Source of the DNA: Phyllosticta citribraziliensis
Taxonomy: Eukaryota
Length of the DNA stretch: 64,000 nt
Direction of reading: 5' to 3'
Assembly: GCF_038025025.1 (NCBI RefSeq)
Contig: NW_027117344.1
Location: 1,674,001 to 1,738,000, forward strand
A program made the position numbers and the translations under genes. Positions 740 to 10,857 of this stretch are shown in pieces (within the stretch, counting starts at the first letter, position 1; each line of letters opens with the position of its first letter). Under the pieces are notes generated by a model that was not told the DNA's origin, searched no databases, and worked only from the letters and a program-made list of their open reading frames with translations.

Positions 740-1296
740 TCTTGTGCTGCCACAGCCTTCGTGCCGCCGCTTGTGCGTGCTTACCTGCTTCCTCCCTGAC
801 AAGCCTCGCGCGCCTAAGAACCACGTCCACCTCTCTCGCTCTCCCATCCCATCATCCCCCCATCCGCTCCGCTCGGCCATCGCATCCCAACCCCAGCCCA
901 ACCCAACCAGCAAGGCCAACTCGCAACATCCCAGACCCAGCACGCTGTAGGGCCCCTACCAGCCAGCCAGCCCATCAGCGACCCCGTTAAAACCACTGCA
1001 GCCGCACGCCCGTCGCTGCCTGCCGTCAACTCCAGCCCCTCTTTCGGCCTCCTCGTTGCTTCGTTCGACTCACCCTACGTCAACCCCATCCACTTCACCT
1101 GCATACCTGGTAAGATCACTCCTCTCCTGCCATCGACCATTACCTGTCCGTTCGACCCTGACTCGCCCGCCTTCAGCCACGACCCTATTCTACCTGGATC
1201 CCGTCTCCTGTTTCACCGCAAACCCAACCTTGGCGCTTCTCTCGGTGCTTGACTTTGCCCACCGCTCACCTCCACGAGTGTTGTCAAGTCAACGCA

Positions 1297-2961
1297 ATGT
1301 CCGAGTATCGCTTCGACGAGGGCTTGCGCCGTGCGCGCACCACCCGCACTAGAGAGCCCGAGTATGTTGAAGAAACCTACGTTCAGCGCGGAAACGCCCC
1401 TGCCCAGCGTGAGCTCGTCTACAGAGGCCCACGCGATGACAGCATCGAAGACATTCCGCGCGACTTCCCCCCGCCAGGCGCTGAGTACCGCAGGACCAAA
1501 GTGCGCGAAAACTACGGCCCGCCCATCAGACGCGCCCGCTCCGTCGGTCGCCGCGACTATTACGACGACGAGTACAACGACGACTACTACCCTCCTCGTG
1601 GCCGCCCCCACCGCGAAGACGCTTATTACTCTGACGAGTATGATCGCCCCCCGCGTCGGGAGCGTCGCAAGTCTCGCGTCGAGGGCTTCCTCGAAGACGC
1701 CGGCCTGGGAGGTATCGTTGGCACCGTCCTTGGCAAATCCCGCAGCAAGAGCAGAGATCGCAGCCGCGGTCGCGAGGACAGGTACGACCACCGTGATCGC
1801 TACGACAGCCGGAGCCGCAGCCGCGGTCGTCACGGCAAGTCTGAGCGCAAGTGGCAGCAAGCCGCTCAAGCAGCTCTGGTCGCCGGTGCAGTCGAGGCAT
1901 TCCGCAGCCGCAAGGACCCAGGACCGTGGACCGGCGAAAAGGGTACCCGCATCGCAACCGCGGCCCTAGGTGCTGCTGGTATTGATGGTTTGGTTGACCG
2001 AGACCCCAACCGCAAAAGCAAACGCCACACGGCTGAGGCCGTCATTGGTGGTCTTGTCGCCAACCGCCTTGCCAACGGTCCTAGAGACCGCTCGGGCTCC
2101 CGTGGCCGTTCCCGTTCCAGGTCCATGTCGCGCGCTGCGTCCTTGTTTGGCCGTAGCCGATCTCGTGGTCGTTCCATCGGAGGTCAAGAGGGCGGAGGAG
2201 GAGGTGCCATCAAGAACCTCGCGGGTGCGGGCGCCATCGCTGCCGCTGGCAAAGCAATTTACGACCGCGTGCGCTCCAAGTCACGAGGGCGTCGTCGATC
2301 AGGAAGCTCTTCGAGTGAAGACAGCTACGTGCCCTCGCGCGGTCGTCGCTACGGTCGGTCTCGAGACGGCGGCCCAGCCGACTATTCTGGCCCGGCTAAC
2401 GGCCCACATCTGCGCAGCAGCAGCATGAGCTCCGAGTCGACTACAGACATGGAAAACCAGCGGAAGAAAATGCGAGGTAAGGAACTCCTCACGGCAGGCC
2501 TCGCCACGGTAGCCACCATCCACGCCGCACACGGGGTGTATTCATCGATGGTCGCATCGGAGAACCGACGCAAGCTCGTATCCGAGGGTGAAATGTCGCC
2601 CGAAGAGGCGCGCAAGCGCAAGAGTAAAAATATGTTGCAGGATGCGGCGGCGGTGGGTATCGCGGCGCTGGGAATCAAGTCGGCATTCAGCGAGTGGAAG
2701 GAGATGAACGAGCAGCGGCATCTGGTGCACGATCTCGAGACTAAGCGGCGCAAGAAGCGCAAGGCTCGTGAGCGTGCGGCCCAACAACAACGCGAACAAC
2801 AAATCCAGAATCAGCGTCTCCTACTCAGTAATGGCTCTGCTAACCCGTCTGGCCCGACAGCTCCGCCCGCTGGCTACGGCTATGGCGCGCCGACGTACGC
2901 AGACGCAAACCCCTACTCGGCCGGTAACCTGCCGCCCCCACCCATGGGCGCCAGATACTAA
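1297..2961 (+). CDS. Arg/Ser/Gly-rich fungal protein, DUF3824-like (about 554 aa)
   Basis: Long ORF; first ATG at 1297 (GCA ATG T). RS-rich segments alternate with hydrophobic Ala/Gly motifs (AALVAGAVEAFR..W.G.KG.RIATAALGAAG; ELLTAGLATVATIHAAH; LQDAAAVGIAALGIK..EWKE) that I recognise from this fungal family. A possible 5'-UTR intron lies at about 1110-1176. Confidence 0.8.
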   Translation: MSEYRFDEGLRRARTTRTREPEYVEETYVQRGNAPAQRELVYRGPRDDSIEDIPRDFPPPGAEYRRTKVRENYGPPIRRARSVGRRDYYDDEYNDDYYPPRGRPHREDAYYSDEYDRPPRRERRKSRVEGFLEDAGLGGIVGTVLGKSRSKSRDRSRGREDRYDHRDRYDSRSRSRGRHGKSERKWQQAAQAALVAGAVEAFRSRKDPGPWTGEKGTRIATAALGAAGIDGLVDRDPNRKSKRHTAEAVIGGLVANRLANGPRDRSGSRGRSRSRSMSRAASLFGRSRSRGRSIGGQEGGGGGAIKNLAGAGAIAAAGKAIYDRVRSKSRGRRRSGSSSSEDSYVPSRGRRYGRSRDGGPADYSGPANGPHLRSSSMSSESTTDMENQRKKMRGKELLTAGLATVATIHAAHGVYSSMVASENRRKLVSEGEMSPEEARKRKSKNMLQDAAAVGIAALGIKSAFSEWKEMNEQRHLVHDLETKRRKKRKARERAAQQQREQQIQNQRLLLSNGSANPSGPTAPPAGYGYGAPTYADANPYSAGNLPPPPMGARY

Positions 2962-4454
2962 GCCGAACCACCCCCGTTCACGGTTGGCGACCTGCTAGCC
3001 TGATGCACTTTGTTTTGCTTCATTTTTTTCTTCTTCGTTTTGACTTGCAGGTTCGATTCGAGATTTCCTTTTTCCATTTCCTTGCTGTCTATTGGTCGAC
3101 CGATGACGCCAGACGAGCGAGCGAACGAACGACAATTCGACCGACCTATTTTTGACGACGAAACGATCCACTGGGAGGATTATGGAAAGCAACAAGAAGG
3201 GATTGCCACAAGGGGCAAACGGGACGGGGGTGAAATGAGCGACGATCGGGATGGATCAACAAGACCAACTTTTGCTTTTGGGGGTCTCTTTTGCGACATC
3301 ATTGACGAGTCTCCTTTTGCCTCTTCTCCTTCTTCTTTTTGCTTGTTTGGGTCACACTACAGTTTATACCACACCTATTGCGCACACACACGATCATCAT
3401 GACCAATGGCTTTGACCACCACCAACACCTTTTCCCCCTTTCCTCCTTTCCATCACACGACACGACACTTTTGAATTCCACCACCCCATTTCAGCACAGC
3501 ACCTGCACGACGACGGATGGTCACCCAGTCAGTGGCGGGCGTCGGGATCTTTTTTGGCCTTGGTTTCTTGCTGCTCTCCATGCGCTGCTCAACTCTGGTT
3601 TGGACGGAATCTCTTTTTTTACACACCCCCAAACAAGCTCTCTTTTTTCCCTTCACTCTTCATAGCTGCTACCAATCAGAACTCAACCAAACCCCAACCA
3701 AAAAGATAGAGATCGAGGACCATGGATTTTCTTGGAAAGTGGGCTACTCGTCTCCCTCCTCCTGTCAACTCGTGTGGCTCTTTTTCTTCGTGCGCTCGCT
3801 TTGTTGCATACAAGCCTTTGGGATCTTTACGTTCGTTTTCCTCGAAGGGCGTATGAATGACGGTGGTGCTGCTGCCAGCCAGTGGGCTTCGTGTGCTGGA
3901 CTGCGGTGGTAAACGGACGCTCTCTTTCACACACACACACAGGTCTATTGCGAGGCCGTTGGCCTGTTGGCTGCGTGGCTGGTTGCTTCTCTGACTCAGA
4001 AATGCGCGGACTGAGTCGAGAGCGAAACGGTGTGCGGAAGTAGACATTGTTTGGAGCTGTGGGCGTCTGAACGGGAGAAAGACCGTTTGCGGCGCGAGAG
4101 ATGAGCAGCGGAAAGAGCGAGATGAGAGGCGCGGATGGGTTCTGTGATGTTGAACGGCGGAGCGTGCGGCGGCGGCAGAGTTGGATGCCGTGACTTGAGG
4201 TTTCAGGATTGGTGGGTAGATGAAGAGTCTATAAGGGACTGACTGCCCTGCGGTTTGCTTGCTGGCGAGGCATGGCGTACGTAGAAAGAGGAACGAAGCT
4301 TCGCTACATGGTACATGTATGTCTCCATCCAACCGTCTCACCCAAAAGAGTAAAATCCTACGTCGCTCACCAACACCACCACCACCACCACCCACCACCA
4401 CCACTTCTCCAACAACCAAAAAGAAACACATCTCGCTCCTTCTTCTTCTGCCTC

Positions 4455-4644
4455 TTCCATCGCCGAGACTCGAACTCGGGTCTCCAGATGTAACAGGCCG
4501 GTCCTCCGGTTAAAGAAAAGCGGCCATCCATCCATCCATCCTAGGTAGGAGGTCCACAGGGTCCAGGTAAATCCAGGTCCGCGAGCGTCCGTCCAGGGGG
4601 GGTTGGTGTGCGGTCTGGCGTGCTTCCAACTGCACCACGATGGA
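4455..4644 (-). tRNA. tRNA-like gene with 118-nt intron/insertion and atypical anticodon loop (nominal anticodon GCA; isotype uncertain)
   Basis: The minus strand folds into a full cloverleaf: acceptor TCCATCG/CGATGGA, D-stem GTGC/GCAC with loop AGTTGGAA, anticodon stem CCAGA/TCTGG, variable loop AGAC, T-arm CCGAG-TTCGAGT-CTCGG. Removing 4490-4607 gives 72 nt. A T5 run lies about 33 nt downstream. Confidence 0.7.
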
Positions 4645-5055
4645 TTTAGCGGTGGTATTGTTGTTGTTGTTGCAGGACCGGCGGGGTTTATGTGGTTGTA
4701 TTTGTCCAGTTTGGTGTGGGGTGTGTTGGAGGAGGAGGAGGAGCGCTGCGCTGACGTGACTGCCCGCAGTGAACCGTGAGGTGGTGGAGTATGAAGAGCA
4801 CAGGCAGAAAATAAACGAGTTGAGAGAGCGGAGTGAGGACCTTGGATGGCCAGGGACAAGCATGTGTGACTAGTCGAAGGAGGTTATATTGGAATCTGCG
4901 CTAGACGCATAGGATGAAGAAAGCTAGAGGTCGCCAACCTCCAAGTCGTGATGCAATCCTTGATCCCGCAAAGAGCTCCCATTTCATCATCCAAAGGCCC
5001 CCATGGGCCTTCCAAGAGGTCAGCCATTGAACAGCCTCCCAGTCTTCCACGACAT

Positions 5056-7443
5056 CTAACAGATACGATGCTCCGGCCTCCTCCACGGCACGCCCAGAAT
5101 CTCGAAGATCTTCTTCTCATCCGCTCCCTCAACCAACTCTCCCTCGGTCAGCTTCTCACGGCTGCGACCCCTCATGACGTTTTTGTAGAGTCCGCGCTGG
5201 TTCAGGCGCATGCCCTTGCGGCTCGCCAGGAGGCGGATGGAGCGGTTGAAGATGTCGTTGCCCGTGAAGTAGATCAGCGCAGCGCCTAGCTCGGTGTGTG
5301 GGACGAGTAGCAGATCGATGCGGCGCCACGGGCCCTCTGGGAGCTCCTCGATCTCTCCTGAGATTATCTCCGCGTGCTTGGTCGTGATGTACGCGCTGCC
5401 AGGCAAGGCGCACGCGCCGTGCCACTTGGATCCCGTCTCGCTGCGCGACGCCGCTGCCAACGCTACCTTGAGGTATCCGGCGTGCATGAGCTGTGGAACA
5501 AGCTCGTCCAGGACAACGGCGTGCAAGCGTGCTAGCGGAGCGTTAGGGTGCGAGACGAGCATGTCAATGTCGCCGCATGAAGCGGAGCCGCGACGGTACG
5601 ACCCGCCAACCGTGACGGTGAAGCCTGGGTCGATTCTGTGGAGTGCAGCCGTGACAAGCGCGGCGTGTTGCGTGACTTCGTCCCGTGGAATGCGTGTGTT
5701 GAAGTCTTGATAGTGGTCAATGCCGACTTGCTGTGCTGGTGTCAAGGGCACGTTATTGGCGCGCAGATCGTTGAGAGTCTTGAAGCCACGCATCACCCAC
5801 TTGGATGCCTGGGAGACGCCTACCCCGTAGATCTGCATGAAAGTCTGCATTGCGGCGTCCATGGGGTCGACCAGAGTAGCGTCGTAGCGGCGAAGCCGAT
5901 TCGTCCAGACAATCTCTTCGATTTTAGTCGCAAGCCGCTCGCCGATGAATGGGAGTTCAAATGCTTCCTCTTTAGACATAACCTTCTGGTCTTGTTTCTT
6001 GAGGGTACTGACGGCTCTGCGGTATGCGCGACACCGCCACTCGTCTCCAACGCGGTCGTAGTAATGGCCCATTTCAGTGAGGATTTCGATTGTTCTAGCG
6101 TTGGGGTTTTCTCTGTCGCCTTTGCCATCATTCTTCTTCATGCACTGCCAGGTCTCCTTCTGCTTGCTTGCAGACGAGTACTTTTTGGCCCTCTTTTTGC
6201 GCGGTTGGTCTTCTGCATCGGTGCCTTCATCCTCGCTCGGCACAGTCGATATCTCTTCATCCTCAGAGTCAAGAGGCTATGGATCGAGTCAGTATACTGT
6301 CGTTTATGACGAAGGACCAAGGTCAGAGCGGAATCAAATCAAAACTTCAACTGAACGCAACATGGAAGCTCATCCAGCAATGGAACCTACGAGATGCGCC
6401 GTTTTCTTCGCCTCGGCAATGATTTTATCGAGAAGATCATCGCTCTTTGGACGATGTTGAATGGTGTCAGAATCCTGAGATGATTCAGAGGGCTGCTTAT
6501 TGAAATCAGCGCTGTCGAGTATCGCTCGGACGTCGATGACGTCCTTCGTGTTTCCTAAGCTGCCTTCCTCCTGCGACTGTGTATTTGGTTCGCGGGCCAT
6601 CATGTCCTGCTTGGACGGCTTCAACTGGAGTGACTGCGATGACTGGATGCTTGATGGCTCCCCCGAGATAACCGCAGCTTTGGGGTTGGGATTATAGCCG
6701 GTGACACGGTACTGAGGCGAATCTGCGTCAGTCAAAGACTTGTATATGATGCAGTCAGAAGGCCAGCTTTCCGACACAACTTTGGCTCCTTGGGGAAAAT
6801 GTTCCGGAAAGGAGTGTTTCTTGAGCCAGTCCTTCATCTTGTCAAATTGAAAGTTCTTGTCGACAATGACGTGAGAGATGTATGGGCACCATTCCACGAC
6901 CCAGGTTGCGCCATATTCGAGAGTCTTAGTAATCCTCATGCGGCGACCAGCATGCGCGTCATTGTTTGGGAAAAAGAAGAAGACCAGGTCCTTGAAGATG
7001 CGCTGATCTTCGGGCACGAGGCTAATTTTGGCGTCACGCATCTTTGCGCCACGGCCTCGCGGTAGCTTTGCAAACGAAGTAAGAGGCGGGTCAGCGGATG
7101 CTTTGGTATCCTCATGCTGATGAAGTTCTGCTCCAGGCATTTCTTCTGCAAAAGAAATCTTGTTGTCAGAGGTGTTGGTGCGGTCAAGATCAGTGGACAA
7201 GGTGTAGCTTTGGCGAGATGTTGTGTTACGAGAAGATGAAGGGCGGGTCAAAGAAGAAGATGCAATGTTGTCTCCCAAGGATTGATGTGACTGATGATGA
7301 TGACCGTTAAAGGTCGAGTTTGTGCGTCCCAAAGAAACATTCCAGCCCTCGTTAATGTCGACGTCGTCTTCATCGTCTTGGTCCATGGCGAAAATGGCGT
7401 TGAACAAGCGCTCTTTCCTCCGGAGAGAATCGCTTTGGTCCAT
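5056..7443 (-). CDS. POL4: X-family DNA polymerase lambda (Pol4-like) with N-terminal BRCT domain
   Basis: Exons 7443-6391 and 6276-5056; intron 6277-6390 (GTAGGT..CTGAC..ATAG) joins them in frame. BRCT-like segment (IFKDLVFFFFP..GATW..SHVIVD..VSESWPSDCI), 8-kDa lyase/HhH (LPFIGERLA, IYGVG), GSYRRG..GDID, RRIDL and YFTG motifs. Confidence 0.93.
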
Positions 7444-7879: not shown

Positions 7880-10857
7880 TCAAGAAGACCGATCTTTCCT
7901 CTTGGCCGCTCTCATTGGCAAAACAGTGCCTTCTCTTCCAAAAGGCCGACCTACTTCCATCACAAGCATTCTGACGAAATCTCTCGAAATCCAGTAGCTA
8001 CTGTGCGCTCCCAGCATCGTCAGATACTGAATCTCGAGCGGGCCGCCGCCGTACTTGAGGAACCAGTCAATCTGTCCGTTGTCGTTGAGCGCATAAGCGC
8101 GTTCTTCGGCAATCTCTTCGCGGCTAAAGTTGTGCGTCTCCAGCTCCACGTTGGACGGCAGCCGTGGCATGCTAGCGCGAAATGGCACGACTGATGAATC
8201 TCCTCCTCCGAGAGGATTGCGGAAGGGATTCGACAGATTCAGCCAGGACGTGGCTGCGCTAGGTACAAAAGCTGGCTTAAGGGTCGCGGCGTAGTCGGCA
8301 TCGACGGTGGCGTTCAGTCGATATGCCACCGGATCGTAGGGGTTGACGACGTTATAAATATTATCAACTGCTATGCAGCCATACGTGTCTTTTTCGCCAG
8401 CAACGCCAGGGCTGAATTGATGTGGACCGCCCGGCTTCTTCCGGTCGTGCCTTGGTCTGAGAGCTCCTTTCTTCAGCAGCAGGAAAAATCCAGCTGGACT
8501 GCCACAAAGGAACAGGTCGGTCGTGTCGAAAAGGAACTGATTCTTGGGGAGATCTTCCTCGGGAGTCTTTGGATCACCAAAGGCTTTGTCGACATGAGTA
8601 GGTTGGTGACTAAGAATGTCCAGGGCCATGACGCTTCCCAGAGAATGGGCCAGGATATGCACACGTCCCCATTCCGCGAATCCTGGATTATTCTTGCACC
8701 ACAGTCGGTAGATCCGGTTCGCTTCTCCTATGCAAGCAGCAATCATCTTTGAGTGATGCTCCACAGACAAGTAGTAGGGAATGTCCAGCATGACGTCGCT
8801 TATTATATTCCGTACGGATGGCAAGGTATCCGGCGTAATGTCCTTGAGCTTAAACGGGTTGAGAGCTGGGTCCTCGACATCATCATCGCGATAGCCTCCG
8901 TCTTCGAACGAGAGGCTGAGCCGCCAATTGACCTAGATCGAGTTAGTCTGGTGACGCATCCAAGTGCAGCAAACTTACCGGAAGCACCATGATTCCTCCA
9001 ATATCCTTCCTCAGGTTTCCTCTCACACCATCACTGCCTAGCTCCACATTGACTTCTCTGCGAAAGGCATTAATGGCATGCGTGAAGTGAAAGCTTTCGA
9101 TGCGCTCAGAAAGCTTTTGACCGATGCCATGGATTACGAGAACGAGATCAGTCACCACTGGGCGGTCCGAGTGAGAGAGAGCAGAGTCGAGCTTCATTCG
9201 CCGACCAGGATGAACACCGCCCATGGAGCTGGATACGCCCTCTCTGGCCTTTTCGAATTTGGCCCCTTTTTTCGGTGGATAGATCCTGTCCCAGATTTCT
9301 TGATCAAAGCCTCGAACAACCTGAATGCCAATTTTGCGACCTTTGCGGATGTAGTTCGCTAGCGGACGTCGCCCGTAATACGCTGACGGTTGCAGGTTAG
9401 GCCGCAGAATGTACGCCTCCTTGCCGTCGGCATATATCACTTTGGAGTTCAAATAGAGTCTTTTTTGGCCATCTCTGCCGAAAAATCCGGAGCCAGATGC
9501 TTTGTTGTCCGCACCTTCTGAGCCATTGGAAATATCGATCATGTCTCGAGCGTGTTCAACTAGTTCGTCACGTTCTTTTTCCGGTGAATTGTCCGATTCT
9601 TCGCTAATGCTACAGTGTATTAGACTCAAAGATTGTGTAGAGGTTTTCCAGAGTGGTCAAGTTTTCACTTGGAGATACATGGGGCATCACAGGAAGCCAA
9701 GGCACATCGCACAAATCACTAACCTTGATAGGAGTTCACCCCGCGAGGTTCCCGGTCTACTTTCAGCCGGCTTCTTTTTTGGCTTCTCGGGCCAAAGGTT
9801 ATGGGCGACTTTTACCTCCCCGATAGCTCCGACTTCAATGGCGCTGTTTAGTTCGTCACGCCATGTCTCCGTCCATGGCTGTAGGGAGATGTAGCCTGCT
9901 TCAAGTAAATTTGCAATATCGGTTTCCACAGGCAGCATTGTGTCCTTGTAGAACCATGTGCCACGCATCACAGGCGCTGCGTCGTTCAACGGGGACCAGT
10001 ATATGGGTTCCATCCTAACGAATTAGCCAAAGTGGCGAAGAAAAATATGGGCGCACTTACTGCAGACTCGGCATGACAACTTCGTGGAGTCGAGAGATTC
10101 CCACGGGCACTTTGGCAGAGGGTCCAGCGGGCTTTTGCTTGACAGGCTTGCTTTTGCTCTCCCTCCTTGGATCGCTTCTGGGTGACCTACTCGGCGCAGT
10201 ATCCCAATCATAGCTATCCGTGTGTGCATGGCTGAGCGGGCGAGGGACGTTCCTCCTGGACGGAGCTCTGACGAAAGGTGTACCGGTGGTCGACCCCTTG
10301 TCTATGAGCATTTCGAGGTCTGCGGGGTCTAATGTGCGCAGAGACGCCGACAGGGCTCCTTGGCTACCAAAGTCCCTGGTGTTGCCACCACTTCTGTCTT
10401 CGTAGGAGCCGTAACTTCGGGACGACTGACCGCCTCTGCCTGCATCGTCGCGTGCTCCGGGAACCGTAAAGCCCCTGCGCCTCGTTTCTGGGAACCCAGC
10501 GTCAGAGCCAGATTGTGACTCGGAACTAAGCCGTGACTGCTCCACAGCATTCTTTTCCCCGCCCTGTTCCTCGTTGTACTTCAACAGCTTTTTCCGCAGG
10601 CTCAACCATGCGGTCTCGAGCTGGTGGTTGTCGAATACCGAGAAGGCGCGTGGCGGTGCTTTGGACAGGTTGCCAGAGCCGGTGACTGGCGGTGGCAAGG
10701 GACTCAACGGGTCGTCGATGGCCAGCGGGCTGGTGTAGAAGAAGCGAGCTGTGATCGGGGGAGCGGGCTCCGGAGCGTGGAGGATTTCGCGGACATATTG
10801 GTTCTCAGGCCGGGCGAAAGTGGAAGCCCGTTGGGACTTCTTGTTTGGAGCAGACAT
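7880..10857 (-). CDS. DDHD-domain intracellular phospholipase A1 (PA-PLA1 / yeast Ddl1-like)
   Basis: Exons 10857-10061, 10014-9724, 9609-8979, 8932-7880; all junctions are GT..AG and keep frame. Motifs PIYW..RGTWF, LVLVIHGIGQ, VLPVNWR, lipase AHSLG, LFLCGSP, YNVVNPYDPVAYRL, QIDW, GAHSSYW. Confidence 0.92.

Follow-up and report, generated by a model that had tools for sequence, protein, structure and literature searches.

The locus at 4455..4644 on the minus strand of the window (the whole stretch of 64,000 nt that was analysed) is best explained as a diverged member of a nuclear tRNA gene family that is present in many copies in an ascomycete-like fungus. At the 3' edge of their anticodon loops, the members of this family appear to be interrupted by long intervening sequences that differ from copy to copy. 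The copy is most likely decaying or sidelined and not a new kind of RNA. The fuller reading, that it is a diverged and probably non-decoding paralogue, a pseudogene or sidelined isodecoder that may still bind Pol III, is about evenly balanced between right and wrong. Considered by itself, this well-preserved and probably non-decoding tRNA copy is mainly a cautionary case, being missed by standard tRNA finders and misnamed as Cys or Asn by intron-tolerant ones.

Gene body, Pol III signals and detection

The gene lies on the same strand as a DNA polymerase gene, the stop codon of which is found 411 nt upstream of it. Its parts and its immediate surroundings are listed here from 5' to 3' of the minus strand, in window coordinates.

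5056..6243, minus: last exon of a family-X DNA polymerase (POL4/lambda-like), on the same strand as the tRNA gene
4455..4644, minus: whole tRNA-shaped gene, 190 nt (position 1 = 4644, A73 = 4455)
4638..4644, minus: 5' strand of the acceptor stem, positions 1-7, beginning with U1; 7/7 Watson-Crick pairs with 4456-4462
4626..4637, minus: A box, positions 8-19 (by comparison with the A-box consensus)
4620..4635, minus: D arm with the 8-nt loop AGTTGGAA; D stem 4635-4632 / 4623-4620
4614..4618, minus: 5' strand of the anticodon stem, CCAGA, pairing with 4488-4484
4608..4613, minus: loop positions 32-37, CCGCAC (C33, GCA, C37), from ARAGORN and script
4490..4607, minus: 118-nt insert, edges ambiguous by 3 nt, with a C7 run and (GGAT)4.5 at 4524-4541
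4484..4489, minus: A38 and 3' strand of the anticodon stem, TCTGG (scripted pairing)
4480..4483, minus: variable loop AGAC, 4 nt (scripted pairing)
4463..4479, minus: T arm including the B box; T stem 4479-4475 / 4467-4463
4467..4475, minus: B box, G53-C61, read from the letters
4455..4462, minus: 3' strand of the acceptor stem and discriminator A73 (scripted pairing)
4418..4426, minus: TTTCTTTTT, candidate Pol III terminator, 29-37 nt beyond A73

Pairing of the minus strand 4644..4455 by a coordinate-based script gives Watson-Crick pairs at all 21 positions of the four stems (7+4+5+5), with 125 nt separating the two strands of the anticodon stem in the window copy. The perfect stems claimed by the sequence-only reading are confirmed by this count, as are, by script and ARAGORN, its spliced length of 72 nt, its AGAC variable loop and its A73 discriminator. 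All bases involved in tertiary contacts are standard (U8, A14, G15/C48, G18, G19, T54, T55, C56 and A58), and the cloverleaf and invariant bases are those of a eukaryotic nuclear tRNA gene of Pol III type 2.

The intactness of all 21 pairs and of the tertiary-contact bases counts against a decaying or sidelined copy, and the locus differs from tRNA pseudogenes and diverged isodecoders in that no stem pair has been lost. It resembles them in being one deviant among many copies, in having its changes concentrated where decoding is affected, and in a terminator that sits farther off. Odd insertions in single tRNA copies are usually deemed pseudogenes according to PMC4090602, where insertions in the D and T arms are concerned.

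The internal A and B boxes and the downstream T-run are the signals of a Pol III tRNA gene. Reading of the letters agrees with the earlier claim of intact boxes and of a T5 about 33 nt downstream: the boxes are ~150 nt apart in the window copy, and T5 stands at 4422-4418 behind TTTC, the whole run beginning 29 nt and T5 itself 33 nt after A73. The T-runs of the paralogues described below start 2-14 nt past the 3' end, compared with 29-37 nt in the window copy. This distance is not disqualifying, because the T-runs of A. niger His and Gly genes sit 25-38 nt downstream (PMC6108506 Supplementary Table 1); by the His/Gly standard it is normal, which speaks against a sidelined copy.

When made to place the intron at 37/38, ARAGORN identifies the locus as tRNA-Cys(GCA), 72 nt long after removal of a 118-nt intron. 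Left free to choose the intron position, the program prefers tRNA-Asn(GTT) with a 116-nt insert at 32/33, at the price of a C.A mismatch and of an irregular region around 26, where two bases share that position. In bacterial mode without introns the gene goes undetected, and in an Rfam search at the gathering threshold and at E up to 10 the tRNA covariance model does not match the unspliced locus; the 118-nt insert is the likely cause of this missing match.

When introns of up to 300 nt are allowed, 60 shuffled versions of the window with dinucleotides preserved yield four ARAGORN calls, two of them with long introns, and the call made by the program is therefore weak evidence on its own. Together with the decision of the A. 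niger authors to drop 14 ARAGORN models whose introns exceeded 100 nt (PMC6108506), these shuffled calls would be in keeping with a chance cloverleaf, a false positive of the long-intron setting. The probability of such an accident is next to negligible in view of the 21 pairs, the full set of invariant bases and the matches of the 33-34-nt 3' half, and of the first 16 nt with their leader, to true tRNA genes in three runs. Each tRNA half is unique within the window, and none of 100 shuffles matches either half. At the level of sequence, homology demonstrates a tRNA-derived origin, both halves matching other tRNA loci in three public runs.

Anticodon loop, identity and insert

A direct repeat of 3 nt, ACA, is present at both ends of the insert (window 4487-4490 and 4605-4610), and four cut registers therefore yield one identical loop, the 118-nt excision giving CCGCACA in each of them. 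The repeat could be insertion microhomology, or chance (about 1 in 64).

U33 and a purine at position 37 are near-universal in decoding tRNAs, and the discriminator of tRNA-Cys is U73. The spliced 7-nt loop contains C33 and C37, and its GCA anticodon is combined with A73 instead of U73. The loop had been described as non-decoding in appearance, lacking U33 and purine-37 and joined to an A73 unlike tRNA-Cys, and this description holds, any simple excision leaving CCGCACA. To judge from these bases, a loop with C33, C37 and GCA in a gene with A73 does not look like that of a decoder or of tRNA-Cys.

The family body is Asp/Glu-like, with U1:A72, the 4-nt AGAC variable loop and A73. Acceptor stem and discriminator are nearest to A. 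niger Glu12, and the variable loop is like that of A. niger Asp genes. The isotype is not assignable by likeness, because neither the same D arm, nor the same T arm, nor CTGGAGAC was found in the A. niger tRNA set.

That the locus is a genuine decoder with a very long canonical intron, either as GCA/Cys or as Asn-GUU, is very improbable, even though ARAGORN yields both forms, the tRNA body is intact and the intron length is within the known eukaryotic range. The Cys form would have to accommodate C33, C37 and A73, and is unlike the A. niger Cys genes, four of four of which end in T (PMC6108506 Supplementary Table 1). The Asn form entails the 32/33 intron, a doubled position 26 and the C.A mismatch, and is unlike the A. 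niger Asn genes. A body of another identity that reads Cys codons would also be expected to mistranslate.

Eukaryotic tRNA introns span 6-133 nt according to PMC4090602, and the fit of the 118 nt within this range is a point against a sidelined copy; for fungi, the A. niger authors state in PMC6108506 that no tRNA introns over 100 nt are known. Nuclear tRNA genes with very long canonical introns, such as Drosophila tRNA-Tyr-GTA-1-9 with its 113-nt intron (PMC8450103), share with the window copy an intact cloverleaf, a split of more than 100 nt by the anticodon, the boxes and a multi-copy state. These long-intron genes have U33, a purine at position 37 and a proper anticodon, whereas the window copy has C33, C37 and no 32/-3 pair.

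The missing pair follows from the letters, position 32 being C and intron position -3 being U on the 37/38 reading. Thus, the position of the insert is compatible with a canonical tRNA intron, but the anticodon-intron pair is absent. Among A. niger genes with canonical introns, the 32/-3 pair is seen by eye in Asp, Gln2, Glu8, Tyr1 and Met1, and not in Phe9. The window insert is not of spliceosome type either: there is no GT near its 5' boundary, its 3' end is ACA, and the only motif is CTTTAAC in a T-rich stretch ~22 nt before the insert end.

The insert appears neutral, containing a microsatellite, having a weak fold score and no Rfam match, and being single-copy in the window. Its fold scores z -1.37 against shuffles and that of the precursor z -1.24; special structure was rejected for both, as 19 of 200 shuffles fold equally well in each case. 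Even at E up to 10, no Rfam family was matched within the insert. Beyond matches to the GGAT microsatellite, the window holds no second copy of the insert, which led to the rejection of a repeated element; a box C/D or H/ACA RNA was rejected because neither a UGAUGA nor a CUGA motif is present and Rfam gives no match. A tRNA-derived SINE was discarded as well: the 3' half closes the acceptor stem, the insert is single-copy in the window, and the paralogue inserts are unlike it. The earlier suggestion that the locus carries or releases an insert RNA is thus left without support, the insert being unstructured relative to shuffles, outside the Rfam families, single-copy in the window and partly made up of (GGAT)4.5.

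The paralogue family and its intervening sequences

Logan contigs from four public runs were compared with window 4000-5300, X2 being the run of organism A and X5 that of organism B. In X2, the entire compared stretch is present without a difference. At least seven further X2 contigs and at least one X3 contig match only from 4455/6 to 4484-4488, with 1-2 differences; the shared 3' span of 33-34 nt comprises the discriminator, the T arm, the variable loop and the 3' strand of the anticodon stem. Over the 3' half, the summed depth of X5 is ~45-60x as great as for the syntenic contig. A joint seen both in X2 and in X5 connects the 3' half to 4629-4646/8, i.e. to the first 16 tRNA nucleotides plus leader. 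The paralogue trailers contain T5-T7 runs 2-14 nt past the 3' end in four of four consensuses. The straight run into these T-runs indicates that the paralogue loci are, judged by their sequence, real Pol III tRNA genes to which the window copy is related.

One X2 paralogue has G73 where the window gene and the other paralogues have A73 (at the loose end 4456). The word depth in X2 is 3875 for the locus contig and 24-237 for the paralogue contigs, one of which reaches 2013. This spread is unlike that of a uniformly covered single genome; the run type (RNA or DNA) is a guess in the record.

Past position 39, all five junction consensuses are unlike the window copy over 30 letters, and the one that derives from a single contig has no 5' half within its 30 letters. 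Since the paralogues diverge at the same junction in three runs, the insert position is a family trait and the long insert is not locus-specific. Four of the five paralogue junctions end in TCAG directly before position 39 (sense strand) and the fifth in CTGG, while the window insert ends in TTACA, not TCAG. Of the four TCAG-ending consensuses, two have A and two have U at position 39; the 31:39 pair would be compensated if position 31, lying outside the consensuses, changes accordingly. The fifth consensus disagrees with the window TCTGG in its first two letters.

The D loop of the paralogues is AGTGGTA (three X5 contigs in agreement, with a loose end at 4629). Relative to it, the window loop AGTTGGAA has an extra U17, and A20 replaces U20. 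The window copy appears to be set apart in four ways, by its D loop, the lack of TCAG, the lack of an anticodon-intron pair, and C33/C37, the comparison covering the D loops, the 3' ends of the inserts and the 3' halves of the paralogues. The deviance from its paralogues that would mark a pseudogene was seen in the D loop and at the insert end, compared by sequence. The placeable differences, however, fall in variable loop positions (17 and 20), which is the pattern of a functional isodecoder and weighs against a sidelined copy.

A metagenome scan with the D arm and anticodon stem of the window copy found no loci with the query AGTTGGWA, where the paralogues have AGTGGTA, and a scan with the window D arm returned 74 loci, all of them prokaryote-type intronless tRNAs or chance matches in coding sequence. 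As these queries rely on a D loop foreign to the paralogues, their blanks are uninformative on the family. The first 19 nt gave 14 loci in a scan of genome contigs, all chance matches in bacterial coding sequence; scans of viral contigs gave none, and a literal sequence search of papers one chance match only.

The TCAG ends bear on the alternative that the window copy is a normal member of a family with introns between 38 and 39 that are not removed by the endonuclease but, for example, are of spliceosome type. In four of five paralogue inserts, TCAG before position 39 resembles a YAG-like 3' splice site, and the TCAG-ending paralogues likewise have no 32/-3 pair on the 37/38 reading. The CTTTAAC motif in its T-rich stretch ~22 nt before the end of the window insert points the same way, as do the GT...AG-like inserts at non-canonical places in 17 A. 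niger models. The alternative is nevertheless quite unlikely for this copy, which has neither GT nor AG at its boundaries and would hence be unspliceable by that route, each simple excision register again leaving CCGCACA; the paralogue evidence consists of the 3' ends of the inserts only.

The 17 A. niger models, by an own count from PMC6108506 Supplementary Table 1, have inserts of 53-65 nt with GTAAGY/GCAAGT...CTAAC/CTAAT...YAG/AAG at non-canonical places. Seven are Asn-GTT models split in the D loop and filed as Phe, SeC or Pseudo, five are Trp-CCA models split at 28/29 and filed as Ala or Pseudo, and two are Pro-TGG models split in the D loop; three further insert models are filed as Ala-TGC. 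Most of the 17 carry a wrong label (Phe, Ala, Asp, SeC or Pseudo). The table contains no intact Asn-GTT gene and a single intronless, defective-looking Trp gene.

The presence of GT...AG inserts in all Asn and most Trp models of A. niger would suggest, at sequence level, a spliceosome-type class, and A. niger-like introns at 38/39 would be compatible with the TCAG ends seen in the paralogues. Both sets occur in tRNA genes, those of A. niger being filamentous-fungal with 53-65-nt inserts outside 37/38, and the inserts of the window's paralogues end in the YAG-like TCAG. The A. niger inserts, in contrast, are located in the D loop, at 28/29 or at ~34/35 and not at 38/39, and the window insert has neither GT nor AG. 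A literature search, with most subscription journals outside its reach, found no paper on nuclear tRNA genes of fungi in which the introns are long or of spliceosome type.

A bolder proposal, to which a decidedly low probability is attached, is that of a lineage-specific family in which each copy has its own long intervening sequence abutting position 39, removed in spliceosome fashion, the window copy being a derivative that is devoid of splice sites and persists as a stable tRNA-like transcript. A wider point, if it holds, is that filamentous fungi may have whole tRNA families with long or non-canonical inserts that are dropped or misnamed in annotation; resolving this would alter tRNA gene counts and bears on the splicing of Pol III transcripts.

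The copy in organism B, constraint and predicted transcript fate

An X5 contig of 897 nt is collinear with 4253-5104 and covers the downstream flank, the gene, the insert and the end of the polymerase gene. By alignment, the locus in organism B is syntenic and alignable across the insert. The search for syntenic homologues that had been advised thus finds a copy in a sister organism, and the locus is therefore neither an assembly or sequencing error nor a very recent mutant.

The flanks of A and B differ in 36 of 281 letters (4002-4282) and in 9 of 78 (4253-4330), which is ~11-13%. In 4332-4534, four substitutions are found among those listed (4438, 4450, 4500 and 4534) in ~112 assessable positions, 4455-4488 being blind, as paralogues swamp the 10% threshold there, and 4362-4418 being masked. 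The retention of the locus and its aligned insert in B, with these four listed substitutions, is a further argument against a sidelined copy. By arithmetic from contig offsets, B has net 12 extra letters within 4451-4499, and 48 letters are missing somewhere in 4535-4897. If the 12 extra letters sit at the insert end, the window copy may have lost a paralogue-like end by deletion.

A copy that was dead before the A/B split would be expected under neutrality to have acquired ~4 changes in 72 nt, at ~5-6% per lineage, and the chance that none of them broke a stem is, as a rough estimate, about 0.1. Although this estimate tells against a sidelined copy, it makes perfect stems only mildly unexpected if neutral, and with gene conversion as an alternative, the selection on the scaffold that had been postulated is not borne out. 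Gene conversion among dispersed tRNA genes, as treated in fission yeast work, might preserve both halves. A and B are so closely related that constraint and elapsed time are not separable between them.

This closeness also limits the case for a selected, non-decoding tRNA-like Pol III gene, which would serve as a stable RNA, an insert carrier or a TFIIIC-bound boundary element and which is judged unlikely. Such a gene would account for the perfect stems and tertiary-contact bases, for the confinement of the placed paralogue differences to variable loop positions, for the presence of A box, B box and T-run, and for the retention of locus and insert together in organism B; the insert, however, is no more structured than shuffles, bears a microsatellite and matches no Rfam family. 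The intact A and B boxes could bind TFIIIC regardless of any use of the RNA, by analogy with tDNA insulators and extra-TFIIIC sites of yeast, but they are ~150 nt apart. In the one yeast case cited in PMC4090602, a 19-nt intron abolished the insulator activity of a tDNA, which insulated only once the intron was removed.

For the preferred reading, a diverged and sidelined paralogue, the following course can be envisaged. TFIIIC and Pol III could still load on boxes ~150 nt apart and would produce a precursor of ~220 nt that terminates in TTTCTTTTT. The tRNA splicing endonuclease, which gauges the distance from the tRNA body, would cut this precursor poorly at best, and any 72-nt product would present the loop CCGCACA and would not support normal decoding. 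The tRNA shape would be kept by recent origin or gene conversion, and not by a new function.

Of the two neighbours that had been named, the POL4-like polymerase gene is present, whereas the 'DUF3824-like' one corresponds to an ORF at 1249-2958 (+) of 570 aa, rich in Arg, Ser, Asp and Gly, that matches no Pfam family at E 0.001. Trinucleotide microsatellites are found on both sides of the tRNA gene, with CAC x12 at 4368-4404, TTG x5 at 4658-4672 and GGA x5 at 4728-4743. Farther away, the ORF at 7883-8824 (-) contains a DDHD domain of phospholipase type (E 9e-33).
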